This document shows, piece after piece, positions 12,712 to 63,486 of a stretch of 64,000 nucleotides of DNA. Origin of the DNA: a phage; the NCBI GenBank assembly GCA_025812035.1, contig GCA_025812035.1_4719.1; one strand, given 5' to 3'. The notes below the pieces were generated by a model. That model was given only the letters and a program-made list of their open reading frames with translations. It was not told where the DNA came from and ran no database searches. Made by a program: the position numbers and the translations under genes. The first letter of the stretch is position 1; every line of letters begins with the position of its first letter.

Positions 12712-14466
12712 TTATGCTGCTACGTATCCAGGCCAACGTTCTCTTGGCCAGTTTGTTGCACCCTGTCCGACGGTGTCTTTACCAGAAATGACGTTACTTA
12801 CATCCCATCCACTCAGATCCTGATTGAATGCGGTGTTCTCGCGCATCATGAGATCGATCTTACGTAGTGAGTGGGTATTCCAACCAGATATGTCTTGGTT
12901 GAATGCTTTATTGTAGGCAAACATGTTAGACACGTTCTGTAATTTTGACGTGTTCCAACCACTGATGTCGCTATTGAACGACGTGCTTGAGAACATGCTG
13001 CTCGCATCAACAAGATTGTCGGTTTTCCAATTAACCACTTTATCGCCGTCAAATGCATTGCTGCTGCTGAACATAAAACTCATATTGCTAGCTTTGGACA
13101 CATCCCATTTATCTAACCCTTTACCGACGAACTCATTACATGCCGAGAACATCCAGCTCATATCGGTAACCCGACTCACGTTCCATTTGCTGAAGTCAAG
13201 GTTAAGTTTCTGACACCCTAAGAAGGTCTTATACATGTTGGTGATGCGACTAACATCCCACTCTTGGATGTTAGGGTCGTTAAGCGTCGTTAAGTAGTTG
13301 AACAATGTCGCTAACGACGTCCATTTCTCTGGAATCCGGTTTGGTACCGTACGAAGCGATGCAAGGTTGTTGGTTGACGGAGAGCAGAACATACCGTTAT
13401 CCCAATTTACGATTTCCGTAATTTTGGACCCTTTGATCGTCTGAGTGGTATTACCATCTTTCACTATACCCGTAGCAACGATGGTATATTCACCGGTGCC
13501 TGCATAATCGTGGGCGTAGGCACCGTTACTTGAGGTCTCCGTTACTTTATTCCCATCACCCCAATCGATATTAACTTTATCCCACCCACTTAGGTTGAAC
13601 TGTACTTTGCCTCCGGTAGCTTTTAGGATGTATTTACCTCCATTGTCGGTAAAATAGCAGACAACCATTGAACCGTACAGATTACCTATCCGCCAATCAT
13701 CCTTTTCTGTCACTGCGATTTGCGCTAAGCCACGCTGTACGAAGAGTACTGTGCGGTTCTCGTCAGTCTGTAATGTGGCTAATGCTTGGGCCTTATCGTC
13801 CTCGCTAATTTCATTAGCGCTCACTAAAACGCTTAACATTCTTTCGAAGTATTCGATGGGTAATTGACGTCCTACAGACTTATCAACCGACGGTTCAGCA
13901 AGATCGCCCAACGCTGCAGTGGTGGCCAGCATCAACGAACCCTTGGTCATATCTGTTTCTTGTAGGTAGTGCAGTCCTGTAATCTGGTACGCTTGAATAA
14001 TCGTAATCAGGTTCAGCGTATCGTTAACGACCTGTACTTGTAAATGTCCAGACCATACGTAGCTGCTTTCGGCAATTGGTAGTTCGACCGACTGGATACC
14101 TGATGTTTCAAAGGTGATCTTCTTGTTAAGATCGGTTTCCAGGAAATCAACAGCGAGGTCAAAATTTATACCGTACTTCTCAGCGATAGAATCCACGATG
14201 TTTCTGAAAGCAACGTCATTATTTACGATGAAACGTAATGGGATTCCTGCAAACGCTCTAGCAATGTCTCGACGAACATACGTGAGCGACTGCTCGAAGA
14301 AATAGGGGCTACCATCTCGCGGTTTAATGGTCACCTGACATACTTCGGGATATTCAGCTGGGATTAACGACACGAATTCAACATCGGATTCTTTCAATGA
14401 AAGCATATTCTTCCGGTTTACTAATGCCAGAAGATCGGCTTTCCAACCAGGATAAACTGTAGACAT
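12712..14466 (-). CDS. tail fibre-like protein with PKD-like segment and DUF285-type repeats
   Basis: start revised to ATG at 14466 (GGAGTG upstream; MSTVYPGWKADLLALVN aligns with paralog N-termini); IDWGDGNKVT...YAHDYAGTGEYTI is PKD-like; C-terminal repeats of type FNQDISGWNTS..M..MF are DUF285/BspA-like. Confidence 0.6.
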   Translation of the reverse strand: MSTVYPGWKADLLALVNRKNMLSLKESDVEFVSLIPAEYPEVCQVTIKPRDGSPYFFEQSLTYVRRDIARAFAGIPLRFIVNNDVAFRNIVDSIAEKYGINFDLAVDFLETDLNKKITFETSGIQSVELPIAESSYVWSGHLQVQVVNDTLNLITIIQAYQITGLHYLQETDMTKGSLMLATTAALGDLAEPSVDKSVGRQLPIEYFERMLSVLVSANEISEDDKAQALATLQTDENRTVLFVQRGLAQIAVTEKDDWRIGNLYGSMVVCYFTDNGGKYILKATGGKVQFNLSGWDKVNIDWGDGNKVTETSSNGAYAHDYAGTGEYTIVATGIVKDGNTTQTIKGSKITEIVNWDNGMFCSPSTNNLASLRTVPNRIPEKWTSLATLFNYLTTLNDPNIQEWDVSRITNMYKTFLGCQKLNLDFSKWNVSRVTDMSWMFSACNEFVGKGLDKWDVSKASNMSFMFSSSNAFDGDKVVNWKTDNLVDASSMFSSTSFNSDISGWNTSKLQNVSNMFAYNKAFNQDISGWNTHSLRKIDLMMRENTAFNQDLSGWDVSNVISGKDTVGQGATNWPRERWPGYVAA

Positions 14467-14618
14467 AAGCACTCCAATCATGGGGCGGTAACCGCACCCA
14501 ACGGTTAAATTGTCGATTATGGTCGTTGCTGATAAGACGACCATAACCAACGATGTTTAATATGTAGTATATTGATATCATGACGTTATGGGGATCTAAG
14601 TCATACCATGGAGACGGC

Positions 14619-27132: not shown

Positions 27133-29820
<2,688 letters not shown>

Positions 29821-37375: not shown

Positions 37376-38395
37376 TTACACCGCCACCTTAGCCTTGATA
37401 GCCGGATGCGATTGATATCCAACGAACACAAAGTCTTCGTAACGGTAATCCGTAATACTTTCCGGTTTACGTACGATCGTTAGCTTCGGTAATGGATACG
37501 GCTCACGACTGAGCTGCTCTTTAACCTGTTCGAAGTGGTTGTGATAGATGTGACAATCTCCACCAGTCCACACGAACTCACCGACGTCCATATTCAGCTG
37601 TTGGGCAAGCATATGCGTTAACAACGAATATGAGGCGATGTTAAAGCTCCAACCCAAGAGCGTGTCGCACGAACGCTGATAAAGCTGACAGGATAAAGCA
37701 CGTGTTGGTACGTTATGTGTGTTCAACCAAAGTTCTATTTCACTACGTCGTACATCATCCATAACCCACTGGGTTCTTAGTACGTCGTTGCGTCGGACAT
37801 AATCAACGCGTTCATCGATCGTGAGTTCGTGGGTATAGAACTGATAGAAACTGTGGCACGGGGCGAGGTGCATGTCGTCTAAATCGCCTACGTTCCACGC
37901 GCTAACGATGATCCGTCGAGAATCAGGATCTTCTTTAAGCTGACGCATCACGTTTGCAATCTGATCGTGATGTTTAACATACACGAGGTGTTTTAGCATA
38001 CCGTCGTTAAGAATACCACAATACTCGTAACCGCGTTGCATCAACTCGCGAGTACGTTCTGTATCGTGCGGAACAACCACTTTGTAGTCAATCCATTCCC
38101 GCCATTGGCTACCGTAAATCGGTCCTAGATTCCCTTCTTCGTCAGCCCACTCATTCCAAATACGAACACCGTTATCTTGAAGATAAGCAACGTTTGTATC
38201 ACCATTAAGAAACCAGAGCAGTTCGTGGATAACGCTCTTAAGGTGAATCTTCTTAGTGGTTACCAGCGGGAATCCTTTCTTCAAGTCAAAACGCATTTGA
38301 CGTCCGAATACCGAACGGGTACCAGTACCTGTGCGGTCGGCTTTATCGCGACCATTATCCATGATGTCTTGCAAAAGGTCCAAATACTGTTTCAT
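37376..38395 (-). CDS. thyA: thymidylate synthase with two large insertions
   Basis: strong collinear match to ThyA: [40 protein letters not shown], catalytic [31 protein letters not shown]; 339 aa versus ~264 for typical ThyA, owing to two inserted segments. Confidence 0.9.
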
Positions 38396-41630: not shown

Positions 41631-42860
41631 TCACTTCAGAAGCTTAGACGCCGCCATGCTACGTGCCTTCGCAACGTCATACGCATCCATGATCGCGTCG
41701 CCGATAGCGGTATGACGAATCAACGGAATACCCATGTCTGGATACTCTTTGGTGCCTAAGATGGATACTGGTTTGTCTTGATACGCGGCAAGCATCGAAC
41801 GGATATCCTGAACCTGGTTATACCGACAAACTGGCTTAAAGCCTGCTTTACGGAACCAATGCTCTAATTGAGGCCAATCTGTTTCACCGCGAGCAAGATA
41901 ATAGAAGGTATCTTTACCGTAGTATTCGGTCATCTCATCACGGATATTGTTAACAAATGCATTTACTGTAGCAATGGCTTCTTTATAGTCCATCACTCCG
42001 TCATGCTGAAAACAATAGTCGCGCGCTTCCTTCGGTGCTTTGGTTTGCCACCATTCTACCGTGGACTTACTAATATCACCGCCATCAGCGATTTGACCGT
42101 AAACGTCAGGGAAGATATCTATACGTGGGCCGTTAATAACAGATTCTGGATTAGCCAGATCGAAGAACAAGATGCCGATTTCCAGCAATACCCCGTTCTT
42201 TTCTAGACTGAGATTCTCCACATCCAGGCAAAACGCAGGTTTCTCTACCGCTGAAAAATCAAAATATTCTTCGAGACGCGGCGTTGGTTCGGCGGCGAAA
42301 AACGTCTCATGAATGAACTGGGCGAATGTCTTATTCATTGCTACTAAGTCAATGCCCAATTTACTTAGCAGAGGTATAATCGCGTGGTCATTCTGCTGTA
42401 TCACCACCCACTCTCGGCTTTTGATAGAACGACCAATTGAGTAAAAGAGATGAACGATGTCTAACGGTTTGTACGGAGCCTCAAAAGTTGTTCCCTGGAA
42501 CGACTCAGCCAGCGCCTTATGCGTTTCTTCACGATGATTCATCAGTTGGAGAATAGCGCGGCGCAGATAATACCGTAATGTTATCTCGTGAAGGTGTGAT
42601 ATATCTTCCTGAAATAACGTCATGAAACCGTGGTATGTATAATGCTCGCCTCTTTTAATTTCGTCGAAGAGTTCTTTGTTCCCCTTTATTTCTTCTGGTG
42701 TTACCTGTTTGATTTGATCGTGGATAATGTTGAGCAGGTCACTGCCGTGTACCTTAAACAGTTTTTCAACGCTAAAATCGGGTAATGTCGCAATTGCTGC
42801 GTACATTAATGTTTCTGCGGGATTAAGTTCTTTATTGTCAATTGTGATGGTTAAAGCCAT
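41631..42860 (-). CDS. protein with C-terminal DEDDh-type 3'-5' exonuclease-like domain
   Basis: start revised to ATG at 42860 (GAGGT upstream); candidate Exo I FCLDVENLSL and Exo III HTAIGDAIMDAYDV motifs; N-terminal ~200 aa unassigned. Confidence 0.5.
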   Translation of the reverse strand: MALTITIDNKELNPAETLMYAAIATLPDFSVEKLFKVHGSDLLNIIHDQIKQVTPEEIKGNKELFDEIKRGEHYTYHGFMTLFQEDISHLHEITLRYYLRRAILQLMNHREETHKALAESFQGTTFEAPYKPLDIVHLFYSIGRSIKSREWVVIQQNDHAIIPLLSKLGIDLVAMNKTFAQFIHETFFAAEPTPRLEEYFDFSAVEKPAFCLDVENLSLEKNGVLLEIGILFFDLANPESVINGPRIDIFPDVYGQIADGGDISKSTVEWWQTKAPKEARDYCFQHDGVMDYKEAIATVNAFVNNIRDEMTEYYGKDTFYYLARGETDWPQLEHWFRKAGFKPVCRYNQVQDIRSMLAAYQDKPVSILGTKEYPDMGIPLIRHTAIGDAIMDAYDVAKARSMAASKLLK

Positions 42861-42885
42861 TTTATTATACCTCATCGAAATCAAA

Positions 42886-43227
42886 TTAGTTAAATTCAGG
42901 TTTATCAGCAGCCAGACCAAGTCCAGCCAGTATTACGTAATCATACCAAGCTTTTACTTTCGCTTTCGCATCATCTAAACTATCTGCGTTGATGTGCGGA
43001 AACTCATCGTTGACTGGGAAAGGTAAATCGCAGTCGTAGCTTGTATAGTCTTTCCAACCTTTCCATTCGATAGTTAGAGGACCAAAAACGGTCTCAGCAA
43101 CAACATGGTTATAGCGACAGTTTTCACATGGCGGGTGCTCTTCCGACCAAACAAGCTCATGTCGCGCTAAAAGTTGTTGTACGACCGATAATGGTTGCTC
43201 TTCATTAAGTTCGATACTGTCTATCAA
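42886..43227 (-). CDS. hypothetical protein
   Basis: 113-codon ORF. Confidence 0.4.
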   Translation of the reverse strand: MIDSIELNEEQPLSVVQQLLARHELVWSEEHPPCENCRYNHVVAETVFGPLTIEWKGWKDYTSYDCDLPFPVNDEFPHINADSLDDAKAKVKAWYDYVILAGLGLAADKPEFN

Positions 43228-49589: not shown

Positions 49590-51671
49590 ATGTTGGATAG
49601 AATAAATCGTCTAATGAACCGAATAGCGGTTAAAAATCAGAGTAACAACACCGTGCATATCGGGGGTATCGATGCCTGGCGTCTTTCAGATGACATTCAG
49701 AGAATATGGGGTACCTCCCGATTTATGAAACATATGTTTCGTAATTTCTCTTCCAGTGGACTCAGTCTTCACAACTTTTACCTTCCCGATTTCGTTTATA
49801 TTCTTGAAACGATCATCGAGGCAAAGAATACCCGCAGTAACAAACGCATGCTGAAACACCTTATCGAGGTGCTGCTGCAGGAAACATGGCTGCAAAATAC
49901 CACAATCGAGCAACCTGCAATCCTCGATAAAGCGCGCATGAAGAAAATGATGACGCTTTCTTTGTTCGATTATCAAGATGAGTTTATCGACATCTATAAC
50001 CGTAACGTACCTAAATATCGACTGAAAGGATACGTGTGTGCGATGGGTGCCGGTGCCGGTAAAACTATTACCGCCTTGGCCTTAAGTGCCGCCATGAACG
50101 TCGACGTGTTTGTGGTGTGTTGTCCTAAAAATACGATGCGTTCAGCATGGCAATCCGATGTAAACAAAGCCATCGTTGACCCTGCAACAGAAACCGCGTT
50201 CTGGTCAGATACCATGCCACCATCACAACTACAGAAAAGCGATAAGTACTATTTCCTGCATTACGAATCGATGGGCTTATTAAACGATGTAATGATCAAA
50301 CATAAACGTACAGCGAAACGCGTTCTTATTGTTGTTGACGAAAGCCATAACTTCAACGACAAGAACAGTCAACGTTCCCAACGATTGGTTGATCTTGTAC
50401 AGACGATGCGTCAGACCATGAATGCGGATGTGCATGTCTTGTTTATGTCGGGTACGCCTGTTAAGCAGATGGGTTCTGAGATGATCCCGTGTTTAGGTTG
50501 TATTGACCCGATGTTCCAAGGACAGGTGGTCGATAGCTTCAAATCAATTTACGGTTTAACCAGCAGCCGTGCTAACGATATCCTCAGACATCGTCTTGGG
50601 TTCATGATGCACGTTGTACCTAAAGAAGCTTATCGTAAAACCCGCCCGGAAGTTCAGGACGTTTACGTGAAACTTCCTAACGGTAGCGATTATACCATCT
50701 CGAGTATCCGTGACGATATGGCGATATTTGTACGCGATCGGGCTAAGTATTACAAGGATAACTGGGGGCATTACCGAAAGATCTTTGATGACGCCTTGGA
50801 TTATTACCGTAAAACTATCCGTACTGATGGAGAACGTAGAGAGCTGTCTCGATATGAATCGATTGTCGCTCGTTTCCAGAAAGGTTACGATCCTGTCAGA
50901 GACAAAGAAGATGCGATGTTCTGCAACGCGTTTGAAAAACGTTCCATCATGCCGGTTCTTCCTTCCGATTTAAGGATCGCTTTCAAAGACGCCAAGAGCG
51001 TCATCAAGTACGTTGGGTTGAAAATTCAGGGTGAAGCGTTAGCTCGTGTTCTAGGTGCTGCCCGCATTCGGTGTCATGTCGACATGGTGGAGTACATTGA
51101 CTTCGAAGGGTACATCAACAACGCTGAAGCCAAGGTGTTGATCTTCACGTCGTATGTTCAGGTGGTTGAACGTGTCGACACCATGCTTCGCGATGCTGGT
51201 TTCTTACCTGAACCGATTTACGGGAAGACTAACAAGAACATCAACCAGATACTTGCTCGTTTACGTGACGATCCTGACAGCGGTCCCGCTATCGCAACAT
51301 TTGATAGTTTGGCTGAAGGGGTTCCAATGCTGATGTGTAATGTGGGCCTTTTCCTGAACAACCCATGGCGTTCGTCTGATGAAATTCAGGCCATCAGCCG
51401 TCTCGATCGTGTAGGGCAAACGCAACCTGTTCGGATTTATCGTTTCATGTTAGACACAGGAAGTGAGGGTAACGTTTCTACACGTAGTCATGAGATCATG
51501 GAGTTAAGTCGACAGCTTGTTGAAGAAATCACTGGCGTCAAATACGTAGTGAACAAGCAAGATGATGTTAACTTGCAAGAAACGTTAGCGATGGAAGGAT
51601 ACGATCAATACGTTACCGTAAACCCTAAGGAATACGATATTAAACCGCGGTCTGTGTTCTTGGAATGGTGA
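49590..51671 (+). CDS. SNF2-family helicase
   Basis: Walker A MGAGAGKT, motif II VVDESHNF, motif III FMSGTPVKQ, motif VI QAISRLDRVGQTQPVRIYRF. Confidence 0.8.
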   Translation: MLDRINRLMNRIAVKNQSNNTVHIGGIDAWRLSDDIQRIWGTSRFMKHMFRNFSSSGLSLHNFYLPDFVYILETIIEAKNTRSNKRMLKHLIEVLLQETWLQNTTIEQPAILDKARMKKMMTLSLFDYQDEFIDIYNRNVPKYRLKGYVCAMGAGAGKTITALALSAAMNVDVFVVCCPKNTMRSAWQSDVNKAIVDPATETAFWSDTMPPSQLQKSDKYYFLHYESMGLLNDVMIKHKRTAKRVLIVVDESHNFNDKNSQRSQRLVDLVQTMRQTMNADVHVLFMSGTPVKQMGSEMIPCLGCIDPMFQGQVVDSFKSIYGLTSSRANDILRHRLGFMMHVVPKEAYRKTRPEVQDVYVKLPNGSDYTISSIRDDMAIFVRDRAKYYKDNWGHYRKIFDDALDYYRKTIRTDGERRELSRYESIVARFQKGYDPVRDKEDAMFCNAFEKRSIMPVLPSDLRIAFKDAKSVIKYVGLKIQGEALARVLGAARIRCHVDMVEYIDFEGYINNAEAKVLIFTSYVQVVERVDTMLRDAGFLPEPIYGKTNKNINQILARLRDDPDSGPAIATFDSLAEGVPMLMCNVGLFLNNPWRSSDEIQAISRLDRVGQTQPVRIYRFMLDTGSEGNVSTRSHEIMELSRQLVEEITGVKYVVNKQDDVNLQETLAMEGYDQYVTVNPKEYDIKPRSVFLEW

Positions 51672-51772
51672 TTAAGAAGCTCTGCCTGATGTCAGGCAGA
51701 GCTTTATGCTGCGTTTACTGCAAAATCGTATGACGTATATACGTCGTAATGATTAAAAATAGGGCAGAACAC

Positions 51773-53227
51773 ATGAAACTCAAACAAAGCTGGAAAAACG
51801 AACTCCTTGCATTAGTAAACAGCAAAAACAGTTTACAACTGACATTAGACGACGTAAAATTTGAACTAACCGAACCGGTAAGCGAAGTGCCTGGAACGGT
51901 CGTTGTTACGATCAAACCGAACGATAATAGTCGCTACTTTAACGAGCAGTCTCTGACCTACGTCCGTCGAGACATTGCTAAAAACTTCACCGGGATTCCG
52001 TTACGGGTTATCGTTAAAAAAGATACCGCCGTAAGGGATATCATCAGTACGATTGCTAAACGTTACGGACTGGTATTTGATACCACTGTCGACTTCCTCG
52101 AATCAGAACTGAATAAGCAAATTACTTTCGCAGACACCGGTATTAAAGACGTTACGGTTCCGGTTGCCAATACGTCTTATGTTTGGGCCGGTAATCTTCA
52201 GTTCAATATCGCTAACGATACGTTAAGCTTGATTACTATCATCAAGAAAACCGATCTTACGAATCTGGTTTATCTGGATGGTGTTGAAGCTGACACATCG
52301 GGGTCGTTACTGTTAGCAACCGCAGCACTTGTTAACGAACACGTAAATGAACCGATGGTTGAAAACGAAGATATCGTTAATGAATTCATTAACGTTCTTA
52401 ATGCTCTAGCCAAATATGGTGACATAACCGGCGATGAATTAGATGCCGCCTTACAAGCGTACGATGAAGCAGAAAACAGGAATAAAACCACGGTAATAAC
52501 TCTTGGTGATATCGAGTGCGTTGCAACCGAAAAAGACGATTGGGAAATTGGACATTTACGCGGTCGGATGGTTCTCGCGCTCAAATCCGATAAACAACCG
52601 GAGCTCGATAACACGTTCAGGTTGTTTACGAATGGTGGTGATGTATCGCTAACGTTAAACACAATGAAAGATATAAGTATCGATTGGGGTGATGGGAATA
52701 AAGTAACGTTGGATGCCGAAGAAAGATACGCGCACCACACATATGCCGACAATAACCAATACCAAATCGAAATTGTGTCTCGTACGGACCCAGATGTGCT
52801 GCGACCAAATTATATTTCTGGGAGTGAGATAACCGAAGTAATTCACTGGGCTACTACTTCAACAATAGCTCTGAATTTTGTTGGATGCGATAATTTAGCG
52901 ACTGTTCCAGATGAGATCCCAACTTCGTGGACAACGTTGGACAGCATGTTTGAAAGTTGTACGAATTTGAATGATCCGTCTATCTCTAACTGGAATACAA
53001 GTAACATCACATCAATGAATGGTATGTTCGGCGGATGCACTAAATTTAACCAACCTTTAGCTGCCTGGGATGTCAGCTCGGTAACTGACATTGGTGGTAT
53101 GTTTGTCGGGTGTAGCAGTTTTAACCAAGATTTAAGTGGATGGCGATTACCGTCTGGAGTAAACCACCGCGATTACGATAGTGGTGCTTTCTCGTGGCAG
53201 ACGGAACATAAACCGACGTTCAAGTAA
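51773..53227 (+). CDS. tail fibre-like protein (shared N-domain, PKD-like segment, DUF285-type repeats)
   Basis: start revised to ATG at 51773 (MKLKQSWKNELLALVN aligns with paralog N-termini); IDWGDGNKVT...YAHHTY; C-terminal ...FNQPLAAWDVSSVTDIGGMF...FNQDLSGW. Confidence 0.55.
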   Translation: MKLKQSWKNELLALVNSKNSLQLTLDDVKFELTEPVSEVPGTVVVTIKPNDNSRYFNEQSLTYVRRDIAKNFTGIPLRVIVKKDTAVRDIISTIAKRYGLVFDTTVDFLESELNKQITFADTGIKDVTVPVANTSYVWAGNLQFNIANDTLSLITIIKKTDLTNLVYLDGVEADTSGSLLLATAALVNEHVNEPMVENEDIVNEFINVLNALAKYGDITGDELDAALQAYDEAENRNKTTVITLGDIECVATEKDDWEIGHLRGRMVLALKSDKQPELDNTFRLFTNGGDVSLTLNTMKDISIDWGDGNKVTLDAEERYAHHTYADNNQYQIEIVSRTDPDVLRPNYISGSEITEVIHWATTSTIALNFVGCDNLATVPDEIPTSWTTLDSMFESCTNLNDPSISNWNTSNITSMNGMFGGCTKFNQPLAAWDVSSVTDIGGMFVGCSSFNQDLSGWRLPSGVNHRDYDSGAFSWQTEHKPTFK

Positions 53228-53636: not shown

Positions 53637-54598
53637 TCAATTTCTCCATTCTTATCTTGGTCGCAGTCGCATTCTTCGTTGTTCTTCTTACTTAAACGTA
53701 AGACACCGAGTGCAGCATGCTTGAGTTCTTGCAAGGCGCTTTTCAGCTGACCTTCTTCGTCGAAATCAAAATACTTCTCGTTGTAGCTTAATGCTGGAAT
53801 CATATTTACGAGAGGTTCGATGGCAGGCATCAGCATTTCAATGACGACCTTAGGGTCAACAAAACGTTCAAACCCTTCAGGAAGTTTACTTGCCACAACC
53901 TTATCGTTCTTGATGTAGAATTTGTTCTTGAACAAATCGTCAAGAATAGCGTTTTCTTCATCCGTGCGTTCCGCATAAGGACGATCGATCATCTGAACGA
54001 AAACACCATTCAATGTTTCAGGTACAGATGGATTTTCACGAATCGAAACCCCACCAGGAATCTCAATATCGATCTTCGCCCACTCAACTACCTGATGGTC
54101 TCGCGTGTAGATAACATCTACTTCCCACGCCAGACCGTCAGGACTTTCTACGGTGTAACGTGTTTTCGCTTGACCTTCCGGAGCCATACGCTCAATGGCA
54201 TCAAACATCTCGACCGGAATTTCTACTTCGCTTTCCGTCGCGTCACCTGGACCGCGATACACCTTCGTGGTCATGATGTATTTCGGTTCTTCGTTACCGA
54301 TCTGTATCGCACGTGCGCGCACCTGACCTTTCACACCACCAACGGCTGTGTTATCGAACAACCATTGATGTTGCACCATATGTTCAATTTTCGATGCTAC
54401 TTGACGAAGACGTTCAACGCCATCTTCGGCCAGTTTGCCAAAGAAGACCAGCTCACGTTCCTGCTGTGTCTCACCACTTAACATCATTAAATTGGCGATT
54501 TGTTTCACGCCTCTTACTTTTGACATACATGCTCCGGTTATAAGGGTCTGTTTCCAGACCCCTCGTTGATTTTTGATTTCACCAAACGCTATCGTCAC
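53633..54598 (-). CDS. hypothetical protein
   Basis: 321 codons; 4-nt overlaps with the genes on both sides suggest an operon with the helicase. Confidence 0.45.
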   Translation of the reverse strand: MTIAFGEIKNQRGVWKQTLITGACMSKVRGVKQIANLMMLSGETQQERELVFFGKLAEDGVERLRQVASKIEHMVQHQWLFDNTAVGGVKGQVRARAIQIGNEEPKYIMTTKVYRGPGDATESEVEIPVEMFDAIERMAPEGQAKTRYTVESPDGLAWEVDVIYTRDHQVVEWAKIDIEIPGGVSIRENPSVPETLNGVFVQMIDRPYAERTDEENAILDDLFKNKFYIKNDKVVASKLPEGFERFVDPKVVIEMLMPAIEPLVNMIPALSYNEKYFDFDEEGQLKSALQELKHAALGVLRLSKKNNEECDCDQDKNGEIE

Positions 54599-56856
54599 AA
54601 TTCGAAATCTTCATCGATAACGCGCTGTGTGAGCACCTTGTCACTGAAGAACTCTACTTTGCGCTGATGGTATTTACGGTGCGCTTCGATAGAGGTACAC
54701 ACCAGATACCAGAACGTTGGCGTCATTCCTTCAAACTTCCCTTTCAGCTGACGCAGTCGCCCCAACACCTGAATGTTACCGGTTCGTGATCCCATCGCTA
54801 ACGTCATGAACGCCATCACCAAATCAGGGAGGTCGATACCTGTCCCCGCCGATTTCACGGTTGTAACGCTGATATCGTTATCCAACAAGACCATGAAATC
54901 TTCTTCAGCGGTATAAGGACCGATCTCTAACTCGGGAATACGTTCACTGAGATAGTGCGACAATGACTTACACATATCAACGGTTGCACAATACACCAGC
55001 ATCTTCATACCTTCCTGATACTGGTTCATGAAACCTTTGATGATAACCGTATAGATAAAGTTGAAATACGCGAGTTTGAGTTGCTTATTCTTCATGATAG
55101 ACTGTTCGAATATCGTGTGTGAATAAGAACCCCCAAAGCCTTTGTATCTGATTTTATCTGTACTACGTAGTCGATACGTCACGGCATTTACCGCAATGTA
55201 TTTCTTGTATTCGCCTTTTGCGAAACGCGCTTCTTTCGGATACATCAAATACAACATCCGCTCGATGAACGGATCATCGGATACCGCTGTTGCCGACAGA
55301 TAAATGATTTCCGGAATATTGGCGTAACACTTGACTTTAAACAAGAAATGCAAGGCTTCGTGACATTCGTCGTGAATCAGTAGACCTATACCCGTCTTTT
55401 CCCAAAACTCAGCGGGATGGAAGGCGTATGGCGCAACGCAGTTATTCTTCTCGTAGTCCGCAATATAACGTTGGAACATGTTCAAGGAGAATAACGCGAT
55501 TTTGAAATCCAGCTCGCCTTGTTCCACCAACGTCTGGAATTCCAGCATGCTGTAACGAGGAATGTCGGGATGCGGTGGATCCTCCTTAGCGTTCCCGCGT
55601 ATCTCAATAACGTCCCCTGGTTCCATTCCGAAGAAGTTCAGCAATGAGCTTCGCCAACCTGGCATATACCGTGGAGAGAGTATGATGCCTGTGCGTACAC
55701 CACGTCGAAACACGATTTCCTGTGACATCGCGGTGTTGTGTGTGACGATGTGGTCTTTAATGACATAAAGGCTTTCGTCATTATCCACCGTGATGCAACG
55801 TGCTTTCGCTTTAACTGTCGGTACGATGCTATCAATCGCTAAACCAGGAAGCCTGTTAACAGGGAGATCGTCTGGAATCTCAACGTCGTCAGGAATAAGC
55901 TTAAGTAAATCGGAATGATAAATTAATGTCTCCATCGTGTAACTATCGATGGGGCATTTATACGCAATTCCTCCTAACTGATACGCCAACTCCCAAACCT
56001 TGGTTGTTATCTGTGAATCAACGGTTCTGACCGCAAGGTGAGCCTGTCCGTTTTCGATTCGCAACTCACAACGACCTTTGACCACCACCTTAAATTCTTC
56101 GAGACCTACGAGTTCTTTCGGTTCGTAAAGTCGGATTCTTATCGGACGGGGTCTGGCAGGTTTATCGTAAAGACATTCCATGATTTCGTCTGTGCTGAGA
56201 ACCTTATCGGGGTCAGTACAACGCCAGAGATGATCGCCACAAGCTTCAACCATTCTACCGTCCTCAAAGAAGATAGCATAAAGCTGAATATTGTCATGAT
56301 CGAAGATCGCTGTAACGTTGGTCGGTAGCCCATTCGCACCAATAACCCGATCCCCTACTTGAAGCTCACCAATCGGCTTCCAACCACCTGGAACCTTTAC
56401 AGGCGTATGAAGCGCTAGCGCTTTGCCACTGCCTGTTTGAGCGGTGTTTAGGCTCATTCTGAAGGGGGTATCCTTACCCCCGTTCATGTACTCCAGCCAT
56501 TCTTGCTGATCTTCTCGCCACGGAAACTTCCATTTCTTTACGAACTCCACTTCCTTACCGGGTACCGGATCATGGTAAACGATCTCCAGCCACTCTTTTC
56601 GGATTCCTCGGGAAAAGATAAAATCCAAAAACGATTTCAACTGTTCGCGGAGTAAGTATACCTCGCTATAATCGCTTCTCGCTGCGGCATACGTGTTTAT
56701 GGTATCGGTAACCATTCTCCGTGTACGAGGGTCACGTCGTTTCCTCAGATGCAAACAACGGTCTCGAAGGTAATGGCCGATAAGATGGGCAAATCGAAGT
56801 CCGTATCCGCTCAGCTTCATGCCATGCGAGAAGACGTCGATACGAGCTAACTTCAT
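54595..56856 (-). CDS. DExH-box helicase interrupted by an intein
   Basis: Walker A AQTGSGK...T split by an insertion; motif II LIHDECHE; SAT; motif V/VI VKSAGTGIDLPD and QVLGRLRQ. Confidence 0.7.
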   Translation of the reverse strand: MKLARIDVFSHGMKLSGYGLRFAHLIGHYLRDRCLHLRKRRDPRTRRMVTDTINTYAAARSDYSEVYLLREQLKSFLDFIFSRGIRKEWLEIVYHDPVPGKEVEFVKKWKFPWREDQQEWLEYMNGGKDTPFRMSLNTAQTGSGKALALHTPVKVPGGWKPIGELQVGDRVIGANGLPTNVTAIFDHDNIQLYAIFFEDGRMVEACGDHLWRCTDPDKVLSTDEIMECLYDKPARPRPIRIRLYEPKELVGLEEFKVVVKGRCELRIENGQAHLAVRTVDSQITTKVWELAYQLGGIAYKCPIDSYTMETLIYHSDLLKLIPDDVEIPDDLPVNRLPGLAIDSIVPTVKAKARCITVDNDESLYVIKDHIVTHNTAMSQEIVFRRGVRTGIILSPRYMPGWRSSLLNFFGMEPGDVIEIRGNAKEDPPHPDIPRYSMLEFQTLVEQGELDFKIALFSLNMFQRYIADYEKNNCVAPYAFHPAEFWEKTGIGLLIHDECHEALHFLFKVKCYANIPEIIYLSATAVSDDPFIERMLYLMYPKEARFAKGEYKKYIAVNAVTYRLRSTDKIRYKGFGGSYSHTIFEQSIMKNKQLKLAYFNFIYTVIIKGFMNQYQEGMKMLVYCATVDMCKSLSHYLSERIPELEIGPYTAEEDFMVLLDNDISVTTVKSAGTGIDLPDLVMAFMTLAMGSRTGNIQVLGRLRQLKGKFEGMTPTFWYLVCTSIEAHRKYHQRKVEFFSDKVLTQRVIDEDFEL
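55735..56421 (-). other. intein (~229 aa) inserted in the helicase P-loop
   Basis: N-terminal block ALALHTPVKVPGGWKPIGELQVGDRVIG resembles intein block A but begins with Ala; C-terminal block ...SLYVIKDHIVTHN followed by Thr; removing it restores GSGKT. Confidence 0.55.
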
Positions 56857-58859
56857 AACGTGAATACATCCTCTGGTTTAGGTTCTTTACGCGGTAAAAG
56901 CATGTAGTCGATCGGATGATCCGGCTTCATGGTTGGGATATAACTGTTCGGGTTTTGGAACGCATCCAGCTGCTCTTGGTGGGCGAACTTCATACTCAAG
57001 GAGCGCATGTTCATGTTCTTCTTGAAGGTACTGAAGTATCGTGTTGTTCCCTGTTTCGGCATGCGATAATCTTTCGTGTGTGGCGAACGAATCATGCTAG
57101 CGTAGAGAATAACATCGAGATGCGAGAGGTTCATTCGCAGACGCTGGGCACATAGACGATGCCAATAATACAGCACGTTTGCAACTTCTTCCGGCGTTGC
57201 TTCGTCTTCCGAAAGGAATCCAGCACTGAAAGAACCTTTCCCGAATTTGAATTCACGTTCGATTTCTTTTGCGTATTCCATCATGTTTTTGTGGATTAAC
57301 GGCATCTGGAATAACGTACGTGAATTGTCCCAATGTTTCAAGTCGAAAATCACAATCCCATCGGACGTCACTTCCCAGCTATGGCGTTTGAGATAACGGA
57401 TAAACGCTTTACTCGGCACAACGGGACGCCCACAGAAATCGAAATTGACTTTGAGCTTACGATAGCTTTCATCTTTCCTGTCGTAAATCTCCATATCACA
57501 AAGCGTCATGTTAAACAAACGCTGCGGTATCAGCGAACTGATTTCTTCCGCTTCTGCTACGTCGTACAACATGTTGGCAAGACCTAACTTCATCTTAATC
57601 AACACATGTTTACCTTTCAGCTCACGTGCGAGTTTGATGTCGTTCATGTTCTGGCTGTAGCGAAGGATATGTTGATATTCCGGCGGGATCGGTGCTGTGG
57701 ATACCGTCGACGAACCATCGTGGTGTTTGGTAGAAAGAATGTTCTGTGTTACCTGTTGCGAACAGGTACGCGCTGCACCATCGCCAACATTATCGGTTAA
57801 TGCGAAGTTATGGCTTAATTCACCATAACACGTCGTGCACACCCCGGCTGGATCGGGATGATGGCAATAGTTAACGGAGCGCATACGCACTGTCGTGCCG
57901 ATTAATTCTTTCATATGCGGCTGTATCGCTACCAATGAACCGTCGTCGCGAATAATGAATCGACCGTGGAATCCACGTAGGTCGGTCTCATCACGGATTG
58001 GCATCGGGATGGTCTCTTTACTACCACAATCACCAGGATGGAGTCGTTGTACAACCGCTGTCGCTATCTGAAGTTCACGACCGAAATACTCAGACTTTTT
58101 AATCTGCTCTTTGTTGAACAGCAACGATTTCGCTGCAGAACGGCTTTCTTTCAAGCTGTCGGGAAGAGAGATCAAACCGGCTGCGTATGACCGCATTACC
58201 GGGTCACGGAATATCTCGGAGTTAATATCAGTTAAGAATCCACGCATTCCGATACATTGCAACACCTGCCCGATCGAAACGTGTTCGGTTCTTACCGCAC
58301 GTGCGATAGGGTTAGCATGCAACGTTTTATCGGTGCTTAACACCTTCGTCAGTTTCTTGTATGCGCTTTCGATGCCTTCGCGGGTAGGCTCCGCTTCAGC
58401 GATGATTTTCTTAACTTCAGGGTGTACGGTAATCTGATAAAAATCGTCCGCGCAAATAGTTGTTACGTATTCCTCCAACGCATACGTAAAGAAGTTATAT
58501 ACGTTATTAAACATATCGAACAGTGCTTTCCAGAGAACCTCGCGATTCTCTTGCGGATAAGCATACATGCACTGACGATATGCGGCGCTTTGCAACGCAA
58601 CCGATGAACCAGCGGTAAACTTGCGTTTATCGACCAGGTTCTCTTTTGTCAACGGTGTCTCAGGGTACATGCGATGCACAGACCAATGCATGTAGCTAAA
58701 GAAAATGCGTCGCGCACGCAGTTCATGAACACCATCATCCATCTCGATATACACGCGGTCATTAGGCTGTGCCCACTCGAACACCTCATCAACAGGCCAA
58801 TGCATAAGCTCGCGTGCCCGCACACGGCGTTTCGTGCCGGTCATCTGTGTTGTAGTCAT
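56853..58859 (-). CDS. hypothetical large protein (668 aa), co-operonic with the helicase
   Basis: 4-nt overlap with the helicase start; Cys/His cluster CHHPDPAGVCTTC; no family recognised. Confidence 0.5.
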   Translation of the reverse strand: MTTTQMTGTKRRVRARELMHWPVDEVFEWAQPNDRVYIEMDDGVHELRARRIFFSYMHWSVHRMYPETPLTKENLVDKRKFTAGSSVALQSAAYRQCMYAYPQENREVLWKALFDMFNNVYNFFTYALEEYVTTICADDFYQITVHPEVKKIIAEAEPTREGIESAYKKLTKVLSTDKTLHANPIARAVRTEHVSIGQVLQCIGMRGFLTDINSEIFRDPVMRSYAAGLISLPDSLKESRSAAKSLLFNKEQIKKSEYFGRELQIATAVVQRLHPGDCGSKETIPMPIRDETDLRGFHGRFIIRDDGSLVAIQPHMKELIGTTVRMRSVNYCHHPDPAGVCTTCYGELSHNFALTDNVGDGAARTCSQQVTQNILSTKHHDGSSTVSTAPIPPEYQHILRYSQNMNDIKLARELKGKHVLIKMKLGLANMLYDVAEAEEISSLIPQRLFNMTLCDMEIYDRKDESYRKLKVNFDFCGRPVVPSKAFIRYLKRHSWEVTSDGIVIFDLKHWDNSRTLFQMPLIHKNMMEYAKEIEREFKFGKGSFSAGFLSEDEATPEEVANVLYYWHRLCAQRLRMNLSHLDVILYASMIRSPHTKDYRMPKQGTTRYFSTFKKNMNMRSLSMKFAHQEQLDAFQNPNSYIPTMKPDHPIDYMLLPRKEPKPEDVFTL

Positions 58860-58885
58860 TATCGCTTTCCGATTTAAATGGTTTT

Positions 58886-58913
58886 ATCATACGGTTTACC
58901 AATTCCGTTGGAA
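58886..58913 (-). promoter_or_regulatory. candidate sigma70-like promoter for the 58859 operon
   Basis: minus-strand TTCCAA, 16-nt spacer, TATGAT about 30 nt upstream of the start; weak -35. Confidence 0.25.
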
Positions 58914-59004
58914 TTTACTATCGCTGTGATAGCATTGGGAATCCCTTCCCTTAGGTTATGTAGGTGTTAATATATCTCCACTACTGACGTAAAGGTCAGC
59001 AGCA

Positions 59005-59490
59005 TTATCCAGCTTTCTGTTGTAAAGCGTATGGATCCATAGCGTCCGACATATCAGCAAAAACGGTGAGAATAAACCCCTTTATCTGTCTCACTTCAGT
59101 GACACGAAATCCTTTATCGTTACGATATACGTTTTCCTCACCAACTAACTTTGGCCGAATAGCATAAACCCCATCAACAAACGGGAATGTCGAATACGGA
59201 TAAACACCAATACGAATGATGTTTGGGTGATCGCCTAGAAGGTCACGTCCGAACTTATCGACTCGACCATAGATCGTTCCATCCGTACCTTCCACTTCAA
59301 TGAGGTTATTTCGAATATCCTGAAATAGCTGCTCTAACGTGTCAGCGGGGTACGTGTATGCGATACCTAACGCAGGATCCTCGATCGTTTTGACACTGAA
59401 TCCGTTAAGCCAAACAATCCGTTCATCTGCCCATGTATCTTTATATATTGTTAATCCATCGCCGTATATGTTGGCGCGTGCTATCTCCAT
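59005..59490 (-). CDS. hypothetical protein
   Basis: 161-codon ORF. Confidence 0.45.
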   Translation of the reverse strand: MEIARANIYGDGLTIYKDTWADERIVWLNGFSVKTIEDPALGIAYTYPADTLEQLFQDIRNNLIEVEGTDGTIYGRVDKFGRDLLGDHPNIIRIGVYPYSTFPFVDGVYAIRPKLVGEENVYRNDKGFRVTEVRQIKGFILTVFADMSDAMDPYALQQKAG

Positions 59491-59580
59491 AATCTCATTT
59501 CCTCTTCTACGTTAGGATAGATGACATGTTGGATATATGTTGCCTTTGCATATATTGCTTTATTTCCGTCAGAAATAACG

Positions 59581-59633
59581 GAAAAATAAACAACAACATA
59601 AAACCCTCCCACCTCCACGCGGGAGAGGGAGGG
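59581..59633 (-). terminator. stem-loop with bulge (CCCUCCC...GGGAGGG) followed by UUUUAUGUUGUUGUUUAUUUUUC
   Basis: hairpin 59604-59633 plus U-rich run in minus sense downstream of gene 59652-60014. Confidence 0.5.
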
Positions 59634-59651
59634 CGATTGGTTAATCTTTCG

Positions 59652-60014
59652 TTACTCTATACTGTCTTCTTCTGTATCTTCCTCTTCGGAACCATCGAAC
59701 GTTTTCTGCACTACCGTGGTATCCCAGTTAGCGGCGTAATCGGCCATCGCCTCACGTAACGCTTCTTCACCAGCATCACCAGCCAGGTCAAGTATGACCA
59801 ACCCTTGTGCGACGTTTTGAGCAACGGTATCAATAACGGTAGCATCTTCTTCGAAACTACGTACCGGCTCAATGGTGCCTACGTCAACAGCATAGTTCGT
59901 GGTTGCTGTAAGCACTGCGACTTGTAACGCATTGCTATCCTCATCGTGCAGTGCTGCTTCAATACCGATCGGACGGGCCAGTTCTTGCAGTGTCAATTTG
60001 CGAATTAAGTTCAT
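59652..60014 (-). CDS. hypothetical acidic protein
   Basis: 120-codon ORF, C-terminal acidic tail. Confidence 0.4.
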   Translation of the reverse strand: MNLIRKLTLQELARPIGIEAALHDEDSNALQVAVLTATTNYAVDVGTIEPVRSFEEDATVIDTVAQNVAQGLVILDLAGDAGEEALREAMADYAANWDTTVVQKTFDGSEEEDTEEDSIE

Positions 60015-60037
60015 TATGTCTTTTCCTCAGGTGAATG

Positions 60038-60388
60038 TTAGCAATCGTTTAAAACTTTTTCAATACGGTGGTTGACGAGTTCATTGAACGACTCTTCAAC
60101 TTGTTCGATAATTTCATCAACATCGATATCCAATTGTTGGGGTTGAATAACGTGCTCTTTCATGGTTTCTAGCCAGTATTCGGCTTTAACCATAACGTTA
60201 GCTACTTGTTCGACCTGGCTGCGTATGTCGATGATCTGGCAGTCTGGATTTTTAATGTCGATGATGTGTCCGTGATGACTGATAAAACCGAGCTTATTCG
60301 ATGCCTTTACCGCATCGCGGGCAAGTTCTTGCAAGATTAAATTATTTACGTAGTTCACTGCTACGGAACGATTTTCTTTATCACTCAT
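60038..60388 (-). CDS. hypothetical protein
   Basis: 116-codon ORF. Confidence 0.4.
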   Translation of the reverse strand: MSDKENRSVAVNYVNNLILQELARDAVKASNKLGFISHHGHIIDIKNPDCQIIDIRSQVEQVANVMVKAEYWLETMKEHVIQPQQLDIDVDEIIEQVEESFNELVNHRIEKVLNDC

Positions 60389-60467
60389 ACCAGGGATCCT
60401 CTTTTAAGTGGTCACATTCTAGTGTTAAGCAGTTAAAATAAACCGTCCCTTTAATCAGCATAAACAT

Positions 60468-60496
60468 CCTCCTCCCACCACATGGGCAGGAGGAGG
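60468..60496 (-). promoter_or_regulatory. stem-loop (CCTCCTCC/GGAGGAGG) followed in the transcript by GAUGUUUAUGCUG
   Basis: perfect 8-bp inverted repeat with 13-nt loop, intergenic. Confidence 0.4.
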
Positions 60497-60507
60497 CGTA
60501 ATATACA

Positions 60508-60921
60508 TCAGAAAGGTGTGCGGTTTTTATATTCGAATAGTGTCTGAAGGACGCATCGCGCTAGCGAGTTTTGTAATTCGATACGTCCTTGTTCTCCGAA
60601 CAGATCCAACACCATCATCCCTTTTGCTGTTTTCTCTGCCACTTCTTCACAAATCTGTAAATTGTACATGTCGTCATTACCGAGTTCCTTTCGACCGATC
60701 GAACTGACATGCATCAACTCACCTTTACTATCGCGAACATCGGAGAATGCATCATAGACCGCATCGATGTTCGCAGAACGCGTCAAACCCTCCGCTTCAC
60801 GCCATTCTCGGTATGTATCATCAAGCGTTTGTTCCTCGCTCGAGGTCGTTGATTCACCGTTAGTAGTTGGACGAATCAAATTGGGTGTTATCATTGCTAT
60901 TACGCTATCGTAATGCTCCAT
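60508..60921 (-). CDS. hypothetical protein
   Basis: 137-codon ORF. Confidence 0.4.
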   Translation of the reverse strand: MEHYDSVIAMITPNLIRPTTNGESTTSSEEQTLDDTYREWREAEGLTRSANIDAVYDAFSDVRDSKGELMHVSSIGRKELGNDDMYNLQICEEVAEKTAKGMMVLDLFGEQGRIELQNSLARCVLQTLFEYKNRTPF

Positions 60922-60932
60922 CGTTTACCTCG

Positions 60933-63101
60933 TTAGCTTTCACAGTCATCTGCGTCGATGATTTGTCCGCCAGCAACGTTCAGTTGATGATACAGAATCC
61001 TCAACGCACGGTTACCGCCAATGGGATACTTCTCGAAGTTGGTCGCAATAGGAATCGCTGATGGCTTATCGGTCGCATAGATACTCTCAGTGATGCTATC
61101 CACCTGTTTTGGATTGTTCGCATAGTCCATAAAGACGCTCGCGAACCATCCGCCAGCAAAGGCGGTAACTTCACGATGTTCAGATTCACCGCAGTAACGA
61201 GTCGGTTGCTCTTTACCAGGAGAACTGTATTTATCGCTATTACTGAGTTTCGACGGTAACCCATGTGCTTGAAGTTTAGGGATACCCACCGCCGACCAAT
61301 CGTTCGCCGTTTTCTCCAACATCATGATGTACGTGTCGCCGATCGCAATAGCGTTCTTGGTTGTCCGCCACTGCCCAGAACGCCCACGGTACCGTACAGG
61401 ACCTTTCTTCAACGGGAACTCACGAATCAGATTCTCCATACGTTCTGAACCTGCTGCGATACTGTCTGTCGGGATATAAACCTCCGTACCATGGCGTTGT
61501 ACGTACCGTAAATGATCCCATTTATCCTCATCCGTGATACAGTGTTTCTCAACAACCTGTTCCACGAATTCAGGACTGACGATATAGTAGTAACGCATCA
61601 ATGTGTTCCATGCTGTCTCCAGATCACCGGCATCCATCACCGGTTTCAGCTCACGCATGATCTGGTCACCAACACCGTTGATGTATGGCGCATTAACACG
61701 ACTTAAGCTCATCCTTTTGATTACTGTACTATCGTCGAACATGAAGTCCGCAACATTGCCCCATTGGTCAACCGGCATCTCATCGTCTTCCATGATGTCG
61801 GTTACGACGAATTTATCGCCAGCCATCCCAGTGAATTTAAACCCGATGCCCGGAACAACGTCGTACGTGTATGTGATAGTCACACGCCAATCATCAAGAT
61901 TCTCTTTACGATAATCGCGGGTCGGCAACACATGACGTAGCTGTCCGTTAGGGTTGCGGATATCAATACCGTGTTCAGCATCAGCCAGGTTCAACCACCA
62001 CATCACGGTTTGATGATGGCGTATTGGTGTACCGACACGTTCACGTTCGTACTTACGAACAGCATCCTGAATCCGGGTGTAAAGCAAACCGATCGCGTTC
62101 TCGTATTTCAGGAATTGACGATACGGAGGACGCATCTTCTCTTCCATCATAATCGCACGCTCGCGGGCTTGACGTCCAGAACGACGGTGTCGATCGCTGA
62201 CAACATCAATATCCGTTACACGCGCATTCGGTTCGGCGTAAGTGAGATCATCGTAAACATAATCCACACGCTGAAGATTGCATGTCATCATGTCAACAAC
62301 GCTGAGAATAGGATCTATTTCACGTGTTGCTGCAAGTAACCCATCTTTACGAATACGCTCACCGTTCTCGGGTATCGCTTGATATACCTCGTCATCACCG
62401 TAGAGATTGATTGGGTATCGCGATTTACCTGATGTAATTGTTCGCTTCTCAATACCGGTACTGGTGAAATGCTTCAATACACCACGACGGGCAACACCAC
62501 CATCTTCAATACACTGGTAGAAGCTACCGAAACACACCTTGCAATCGCGACCGTAACCCCACTCGCGTGTTTCTTGATTGATCGCTGGGCTTTCCATCAA
62601 ACGAGAATATCGCGGTACGATCTGGCCTCGACGAAGGGAATGGAACAAATTGGTTGGTCGAAAACGGAAACCGTACTGCTGATGCATGATGTGATGCTCA
62701 GGCACTTCAAGCAATCGTAGTTCATGGCGGTTACCATCCTCTTGGTTTTCATACAGCACGTAATGCATCGTGTTTGTTTTGATGCTGTTTGCTGTATGCC
62801 CCGGCTGAAAACGTGGGATGATATCTATGATGCGAGATTCAACTGGAAACTCTACTGACCACGTGTTCTGTCCGTACTGGTATTCGATCCCCGTCGTCAG
62901 TCTGGACGGCTTCGCATCCTTGATAACTAAGGCTTGACTAAGGTGACCGCCAAACATCGCAGCACGCTGCGCTGAGTTATAATGCAATAGCCCGTTAAGT
63001 CCAGTCCCTACACCAGTATACTCCTGTTTAATGGGGATGATTTTACCTTCAGCGATTGCCTGCTTCACAGATTCATAAAGAGGTTTTTCTTTATAATGCA
63101 T
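60933..63101 (-). CDS. hypothetical large protein (722 aa)
   Basis: start revised to ATG at 63101 (AGGAAG upstream; MHYKEKPLYES...), which removes overlap with the divergent plus-strand gene; no family recognised. Confidence 0.5.
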   Translation of the reverse strand: MHYKEKPLYESVKQAIAEGKIIPIKQEYTGVGTGLNGLLHYNSAQRAAMFGGHLSQALVIKDAKPSRLTTGIEYQYGQNTWSVEFPVESRIIDIIPRFQPGHTANSIKTNTMHYVLYENQEDGNRHELRLLEVPEHHIMHQQYGFRFRPTNLFHSLRRGQIVPRYSRLMESPAINQETREWGYGRDCKVCFGSFYQCIEDGGVARRGVLKHFTSTGIEKRTITSGKSRYPINLYGDDEVYQAIPENGERIRKDGLLAATREIDPILSVVDMMTCNLQRVDYVYDDLTYAEPNARVTDIDVVSDRHRRSGRQARERAIMMEEKMRPPYRQFLKYENAIGLLYTRIQDAVRKYERERVGTPIRHHQTVMWWLNLADAEHGIDIRNPNGQLRHVLPTRDYRKENLDDWRVTITYTYDVVPGIGFKFTGMAGDKFVVTDIMEDDEMPVDQWGNVADFMFDDSTVIKRMSLSRVNAPYINGVGDQIMRELKPVMDAGDLETAWNTLMRYYYIVSPEFVEQVVEKHCITDEDKWDHLRYVQRHGTEVYIPTDSIAAGSERMENLIREFPLKKGPVRYRGRSGQWRTTKNAIAIGDTYIMMLEKTANDWSAVGIPKLQAHGLPSKLSNSDKYSSPGKEQPTRYCGESEHREVTAFAGGWFASVFMDYANNPKQVDSITESIYATDKPSAIPIATNFEKYPIGGNRALRILYHQLNVAGGQIIDADDCES

Positions 63102-63132
63102 AGGACTTCCTATTATCGAATTGAGGTACGTT

Positions 63133-63486
63133 ATGTCTAACACGCCCCTGAACGACTTCCTTAAGACAAACCCCGATGACCTCATCCACGATCTTGATTT
63201 CAGGAACGTTGTTGAGATGCATCTGGAATATTTCAAAAATGCCGGACTGGTCTCTACAATAGACATACCACCCGAACGCGCCTACGAATTCGATGGTAAC
63301 TTTTATGGATTGTGTCGTGTTCTGCTTGGCGAGGGCAGTGAAACAATGCACTGGATCACCATGAGACTCAGTGGTTATCGTGACCCTACGGAATACACCG
63401 CCGATGTTCTAACCATGAAGATTGTCGATGCAAGCGCAATCAACACACTAAAACAGCAATATCGTACAATCCACTACAGCGCTTAA
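63133..63486 (+). CDS. hypothetical protein (isolated plus-strand gene)
   Basis: ATG at 63133 with GAGGT upstream (ORF track begins at an in-frame TTG at 63121); 117 aa. Confidence 0.4.
   Translation: MSNTPLNDFLKTNPDDLIHDLDFRNVVEMHLEYFKNAGLVSTIDIPPERAYEFDGNFYGLCRVLLGEGSETMHWITMRLSGYRDPTEYTADVLTMKIVDASAINTLKQQYRTIHYSA

Follow-up and report, generated by a model that had tools for sequence, protein, structure and literature searches.

Nucleus-forming jumbo phages of the Chimalliviridae carry two paralogous split RNA polymerases, one virion (vRNAP) and one non-virion (nvRNAP). In phiKZ, gp74 is a β′-like subunit with a bridge helix at L242-Y279, a trigger helix at T365-V383 and a zinc domain built on C288, C341, C350 and C353, and K386 and K394 are highlighted as the β-barrel lysines (PMC8287921). 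Table S3 of Prichard et al. 2023 (PMC10299810) places the genes considered here in a block of core genes of nucleus-forming phages, cg10-cg17, in which cg15 unites Goslar gp171, phiKZ gp071/gp073 and RAY gp248, cg16 unites Goslar gp165, phiKZ gp074 and RAY gp249, and cg17 is a helicase; the remaining subunits are given there as Goslar gp188 (phiKZ gp55, β′N), gp039 (phiKZ gp123, βN) and the σ-like gp175. Here we examine two large genes, encoding proteins of 668 and 722 amino acids (aa), in a stretch of phage DNA of 64,000 nucleotides (nt) (GenBank assembly GCA_025812035.1, contig GCA_025812035.1_4719.1), which we call the window throughout. A preliminary description had left both as unassigned. 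We put at about 97% the probability that they encode two of the five nvRNAP subunits, the C-terminal halves of β′ and β, in a Goslar-like nucleus-forming jumbo phage of the Chimalliviridae.

The closest relative is readily named: when positions 56853-63266 were compared by megablast with a phage collection, the sole match was Escherichia phage vB_EcoM_Goslar, a nucleus-forming jumbo phage of 237 kb, at 93% nt identity and 96% query cover. The window DNA is thus probably that of a distinct Goslar-like phage, judging from this similarity. The identification of the two genes is based on homology, conserved residues, synteny and purifying selection; what is said below of the assembly, timing, localisation and activity of the enzyme is drawn from the literature on phiKZ, RAY and Goslar, and would hold here by analogy.

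Homology and conserved residues of the two proteins

The genes and the motifs on which the assignment depends are as follows:

56853 to 58859, minus strand: gene of the 668-aa protein, read as the C-terminal half of nvRNAP β′; orthologue of Goslar gp165, phiKZ gp74 and RAY gp249
58053 to 58166, minus strand: bridge-helix region, aa ~232-269; equivalent to phiKZ gp74 L242-Y279 and to the E. coli β′ bridge helix
58026 to 58028, minus strand: Cys278, first ligand of the β′ zinc site; invariant column, equivalent to phiKZ C288 and E. coli C814
57828 to 57866, minus strand: Cys cluster CHHPDPAGVCTTC, aa 332-344, with Cys332, Cys341 and Cys344 as zinc ligands 2-4
57723 to 57794, minus strand: first trigger helix and trigger-loop His, aa 356-379; H379 is equivalent to phiKZ H388 and E. 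coli β′ H936
60933 to 63101, minus strand: gene of the 722-aa protein, read as the C-terminal half of nvRNAP β; orthologue of Goslar gp171, phiKZ gp71-73 and RAY gp248
61812 to 61838, minus strand: active-site motif of the β double-psi β-barrel, FK422-FTGMAGD-K430; equivalent to phiKZ K386/K394 and to E. coli GDKMAGRHGNKG
61179 to 61190, minus strand: GESE motif (E639, E641), invariant columns, equivalent to GEME of E. coli β

Both proteins were searched against Pfam and PHROGs profiles and against the sequences of solved structures, and were further compared by BLASTP, tblastn, megablast and multiple alignment. The 668-aa open reading frame (ORF), which lies on the minus strand exactly where it had been described, matches PHROG 3015 (“RNA polymerase beta subunit”) at E=4.7e-170 over profile positions 3-652 of 653. 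Among solved structures it matches chain D of 7OGP (PHIKZ074) at E=1.3e-86 over aa 11-654, followed by AR9 7S00_D at E=1.3e-13 and then by many bacterial β′ chains, at marginal E values and around β′ residues ~730-950. BLASTP against phiKZ gp74 gives 300 bits (E=1e-96) over the full length, and identity to Goslar gp165 is 99.4% at the aa level. A Pfam scan of the same protein returned zero β′ matches.

Alignment of the 668-aa protein with phiKZ gp74 and E. coli β′, with feature boundaries and zinc ligands of gp74 taken from the phiKZ structure paper (PMC8287921), places all of the expected landmarks. The bridge-helix segment aligns to gp74 ungapped at a constant offset of 10, with K244, Y258 and R261 invariant also in E. 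coli β′. Cys332, Cys341 and Cys344 correspond to phiKZ C341, C350 and C353 and to E. coli C888, C895 and C898, with an invariant YG directly following, so that the motif reads CX8CX2CYG; the first ligand, C278, sits 54 residues upstream of this cluster. The preliminary description had singled out CHHPDPAGVCTTC as a Cys/His cluster, and the string is indeed present and holds three of the four β′ zinc cysteines, but its two His are variable, phiKZ having CNHPD and E. coli CDTD at that place. In the trigger region, the window protein shares G359, A362, A363, T371, T377 and H379 with both phiKZ and E. coli. A Cys4 zinc site, a bridge helix, a trigger loop with its catalytic His and full-length homology to gp74 are therefore all found in the one protein.

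The evidence for the 722-aa protein is of the same kind. It matches PHROG 3295, which bears an RNA polymerase label, at E=8e-181 over profile positions 10-693 of 698, and chain C of 7OGP (phiKZ gp71-73) at E=1.6e-85, with weaker structure matches to AR9 7S00_C (E=4e-17) and to residues 1063-1241 of E. coli β (E=0.005); overall, its alignment to E. coli β covers the C-terminal half of that subunit, ~residue 700 to 1342, and it is 99.7% identical in aa to Goslar gp171. In the Pfam scan of the two proteins, matches to TRIP4 and DUF2794 were set aside as noise. In an alignment of the window protein with Xanthomonas phage Xoo-sp14, Erwinia phage Special G, Pseudomonas phage EL, Vibrio phage VP4B, Ralstonia phage RSF1 and E. 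coli β, the residues K422, G428, K430, V432, P443, G448, R463, E639 and E641 are invariant across the six divergent phages and E. coli. Full-length homology to gp71-73, both lysines of the double-psi β-barrel and GExE are thus present together, and the statement that neither protein shows signature motifs of an RNA polymerase does not stand for either of them. The gene is continuous and without an intron; its counterparts in phiKZ and PhiPA3 are split in two by an insertion.

The extent of the 722-aa gene merits a comment. The mechanical ORF ending at 60933 reaches 63266 (777 aa), and the length of 722 aa given in the preliminary description, which we retain, is that from the ATG at 63101. This start is preferred because a Shine-Dalgarno sequence, AGGAAGtcctATG, precedes it, because Goslar gp171 is annotated with the same start, because homology to phiKZ begins just downstream of it, and because lengthening the gene by these 55 codons would carry it antisense across another, conserved gene (63133-63486, plus strand). 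Across the 165 nt of the extension there are only 3 differences from Goslar, too few to give a count of synonymous and non-synonymous changes any power.

Selection on the two genes was gauged by counting synonymous and non-synonymous codon differences between the window genes and their Goslar orthologues. The 668-aa gene has 111 of the former and 4 of the latter, and the 722-aa gene 114 and 2; both are therefore real genes under strong purifying selection rather than chance ORFs.

Synteny completes the evidence. The order in phiKZ is gp67 (ChmC), gp68 (the σ-like fifth subunit), gp69, gp70, gp71-73, gp74 and gp75 (helicase), and the Goslar/window order is gp176 (ChmC), gp175, gp174, gp173, gp172 (on the opposite strand), gp171, five small genes, gp165 and gp164 (helicase). 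Goslar gp175 and phiKZ gp68 are homologues (E=1e-33), and the succession from σ-like subunit through β and β′ to helicase is the same from phiKZ gp67 to gp75 as from Goslar gp176 to gp164. Comparison with annotated relatives, which had been proposed as a check, accordingly yielded a shared order in Goslar and phiKZ. The two genes had been said to flank a helicase operon: they do lie near the helicase, but both are upstream of it and on the same strand. The suggestion that they might be strongly diverged forms of known enzymes with a core role in replication or transcription proved apt, in that they are diverged halves of RNA polymerase β′ and β.

On this assignment the 668-aa protein supplies the bridge helix, the trigger loop and the Cys4 zinc domain, and the 722-aa protein one of the two active-site double-psi β-barrels, with its two conserved lysines, together with the flap and clamp-proximal regions. 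By analogy with the phiKZ enzyme, which has been solved and studied biochemically, both would assemble with β′N, which carries the Mg-binding DxDGD (Goslar gp188; DFDGD in phiKZ), with βN (gp039) and with a σ-like fifth subunit (gp175), giving a five-subunit enzyme that may do without α or ω. Such an enzyme would be made from early transcripts and, inside the phage nucleus, would go on to transcribe the phage's middle and late genes.

Alternatives to an unmodified non-virion polymerase

Several points weigh against the assignment. The function is carried over from phiKZ at ~30% identity, and direct biochemical evidence on the Goslar enzyme was not found in the literature consulted. The sole relevant Pfam match is Rpb2_6 (PF00562) in the 722-aa protein, at 16.0 bits against a cutoff of 23.4. 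Phe431 follows the second active-site Lys, whereas all the other sequences sampled have Gly at this place (GDKF versus GDKG, GGKG or GNKG). The gene numbers given for the Goslar virion polymerase differ between a preprint and PMC10299810, with gp165 and gp171 in the virion set of neither. Finally, the partner subunits (β′N, βN and the σ-like subunit) were not found among the other large ORFs of the window; those scanned encode tail fibre and virion proteins, a ligase, a thymidylate synthase and an exonuclease. No other large ORF of the window being a polymerase subunit, the partners are therefore encoded outside it, and that this genome encodes the full enzyme is an assumption made from Goslar.

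A variant of the nvRNAP assignment is that the Goslar lineage has modified the module, such that four to five small, unannotated genes specific to the lineage, lying between the two genes (two of them weak paralogues, and bracketed by strong hairpins, as described below), may encode polymerase-associated regulators, and GDKF may alter catalytic or inhibitor properties. We regard this as unlikely.

The existence of two paralogous split polymerases in chimalliviruses raises a different question, namely whether both proteins could be subunits of vRNAP, packaged in the virion, injected with the DNA and transcribing early genes. The 668-aa protein has weak local matches in that direction (31 bits to the zinc region of phiKZ gp80, the virion β′-like protein, and PHROG 2962 at E=3e-10), but the match to gp80 is short, and the full-length matches of ~300 bits go to gp74 and gp71-73: against nvRNAP gp74 the 668-aa protein scores 300 bits, and against gp80 its 31 bits come from the zinc region alone. 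By tblastn (E<=1e-5 for the 668-aa query) each protein has one matching place per phage genome, which for the 668-aa query in phiKZ is gp74. The genes stand in the conserved nvRNAP block beside a gp68-like σ factor and ChmC, and the core-genome table puts the vRNAP genes elsewhere, at cg20, cg50, cg56 and cg57 (PMC10299810). Mass spectrometry of Goslar virions, reported in a preprint, identifies the five subunits of the virion polymerase as products of other genes, gp78 among them. In Erwinia phage RAY, the orthologue of the 668-aa protein is annotated “nvRNAP beta' subunit 2”, and GFP fusions of gp248 and gp249 co-localise with DNA inside the phage nucleus. Membership of the virion enzyme is consequently very improbable, and assignment to nvRNAP is preferred.

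It could also be supposed that the proteins are nvRNAP homologues that have become catalytically degenerate or have been repurposed, as structural or regulatory pseudo-subunits. The substitution at Phe431 is what speaks for this, since it replaces an otherwise invariant Gly beside an active-site Lys (GDKF versus G[NDG]KG). Against it, every catalytic-core residue tested is conserved, each phage genome has a single copy of each gene, purifying selection relative to Goslar is very strong, and the genes are core genes in every nucleus-forming phage (PMC10299810); a loss of catalysis is hard to credit, and we keep to working subunits of nvRNAP.

A reading of the two proteins as novel enzymes, or as strongly diverged members of another polymerase class such as the DNA polymerases or primases, can be dismissed: the genes do adjoin helicases and other DNA-metabolism genes, and Pfam yields zero matches above threshold (a scan that, taken alone, would wrongly have supported the label “unassigned”), but the idea is refuted by confident PHROG matches to a well-known family (E=1e-170 to 1e-181), by whole-length matches to solved RNA polymerase chains (E ~1e-86) and by the retention of RNA-polymerase-specific residues, with a comparable score from any other family in neither the Pfam nor the PHROG scans.

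Neighbouring genes, the helicase intein and other parts of the window

The features around the two polymerase genes are:

54595 to 56856, minus strand: SF2 DNA helicase, 753 aa; orthologue of Goslar gp164 and phiKZ gp75; core gene cg17
55735 to 56421, minus strand: 229-aa intein inside the helicase Walker A motif (GSGK, then the intein ALALHTP…IVTHN, then TAMSQ); an exact insertion relative to Goslar gp164 and phiKZ gp75
59005 to 60921, minus strand: small ORFs of 161, 120, 116 and 137 aa between the β and β′ genes; equivalents of Goslar gp166-170
63133 to 63486, plus strand: divergent conserved small gene, orthologue of Goslar gp172, cg14; PHROG 3455 at E=1e-20

The start of the helicase gene overlaps the stop of the β′ gene by 4 nt (56853-56856), as had been noted, and in phiKZ the start of gp75 likewise overlaps the end of gp74; the 668-aa gene is translationally coupled to the helicase gene. 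That the helicase contains an intein is borne out: the 229-aa insertion in Walker A is absent from Goslar and phiKZ. The first residue of the intein is Ala (not Cys or Ser) and it ends in THN, followed by Thr. Its N-terminus matches the solved mycobacterial Ala1 DnaB inteins 6RIX and 6BS8, which also start with ALAL, at E=3e-12 to 1e-11, and the Pfam Hint models score at E ~0.1. Its Trp (GDHLW), Cys (RCITVDN) and Thr (VTHN) form what we take to be the ‘WCT’ pattern of class 3 inteins. In Pseudomonas phage EL and Erwinia phage Rebecca, too, this helicase gene harbours related inteins.

The four small ORFs part the two polymerase genes, which in phiKZ lie next to each other; a PHROG scan of these ORFs returned zero matches. 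Towards their C-termini the 120-aa and 137-aa proteins are weakly similar (34% over 32 aa, E=2.5e-5 in a database of four sequences), and an N-terminal motif, L(T/I)LQELAR, is common to the 120-aa and 116-aa proteins. Long GC-rich hairpins lie on the coding strand in gaps among these ORFs, one at 60468-60496 (minus strand) with a 12-bp stem and one at 59604-59627 (minus strand) with a 9-bp stem and TTTTAT after it; they may act in termination or RNA processing and so split the string from β to β′ into separate transcripts. A scan of the region for σ70 promoters and terminators gave counts no higher than in shuffled sequence, the σ70 consensus not being apt for phage polymerases. On the other side of the 722-aa gene, the gap at 63102-63132 leaves 31 nt between its start codon and that of the divergent, conserved cg14 gene, and any promoters here must therefore lie inside the neighbouring coding sequence or be very compact.

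Further genes recognised in the window are an NAD-dependent DNA ligase (27446-29512), a thymidylate synthase (37376-38395), an exonuclease (41631-42920) and a SNF2-type helicase (49590-51671). Three otherwise unlike large proteins (3392-6004 and 12712-14550, minus strand; 51749-53227, plus strand) have in common an N-terminal domain of ~180 aa, which matches PHROG 1037 and PHROG 2935 (‘virion structural protein’) and looks like an attachment module bearing different distal domains; the Goslar annotation of the third is a BspA-family leucine-rich-repeat surface protein. The 1172-aa protein at 8503-12021 (minus strand) has very strong matches to many tail-fibre PHROG families and multiple repeated stretches, and is likely a host-range determinant.

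Comparison with known polymerases

The identity of these subunits is already known, in the sense that their orthologues have been annotated and tabulated and have been characterised structurally in phiKZ; “unassigned” was thus a misnomer, the Goslar orthologues being annotated as RNA polymerase and listed under cg15 and cg16. In annotation the genes are best labelled nvRNAP β′ (C-terminal half) and nvRNAP β (C-terminal half). It is worth noting that Pfam alone overlooks the polymerase subunits of jumbo phages, which PHROGs and a sequence search of solved structures identify. The enzyme itself is central to the life cycle of nucleus-forming phages, where it provides rifampicin-resistant, host-independent transcription in the phage nucleus, as established for phiKZ, RAY and Goslar.

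Goslar is the nearest system by far, its gp165 (YP_009820850) and gp171 (YP_009820856) matching the window proteins in length (668 and 722 aa) and in neighbours, and both being named “RNA polymerase beta subunit” in RefSeq. The window differs from it in that the genes share ~94% nt identity, with almost all of the change synonymous, and in that the Goslar helicase is without an intein. With phiKZ gp74 and gp71-73, seen by cryo-EM in 7OGP, there is full-length homology at ~30% identity, and the zinc site, bridge helix, trigger loop and β-barrel lysines are alike, as are the gene order and the overlap with the downstream helicase; however, the phiKZ β gene is interrupted (gp71, gp72, gp73) and its polymerase genes are adjacent, whereas here the β gene is continuous, four to five small genes intervene and Phe431 is present. 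Erwinia phage RAY, whose gp248 (nvRNAP β subunit 2) and gp249 (nvRNAP β′ subunit 2) fall in the same cg15 and cg16, is likewise at ~30% identity and infects another host.

Further afield, the nvRNAP of Bacillus phage AR9 (7S00, chains C and D) has β and β′ split alike and homologous C-terminal halves (E=4e-17 and 1.3e-13), but it is much more distant, the match being confined to the conserved core, and it belongs to a uracil-DNA phage without a nucleus, in which the fifth subunit recognises promoters otherwise. The similarity of both proteins to bacterial subunits is marginal (E ~1e-2 to 1e-4), although RpoB and RpoC share with them the β′ zinc site (C814/888/895/898), the bridge helix, the trigger-loop His and, in β, GDK…GNKG and GEME. 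Bacterial β and β′ are single polypeptides of 1342 and 1407 aa, whereas here they are split into halves, without SI3 and, by analogy with phiKZ, probably without α or ω. The two proteins of the window work like β and β′, yet they are not canonical RpoB and RpoC: each is a C-terminal half only, and each falls short of the Pfam threshold.

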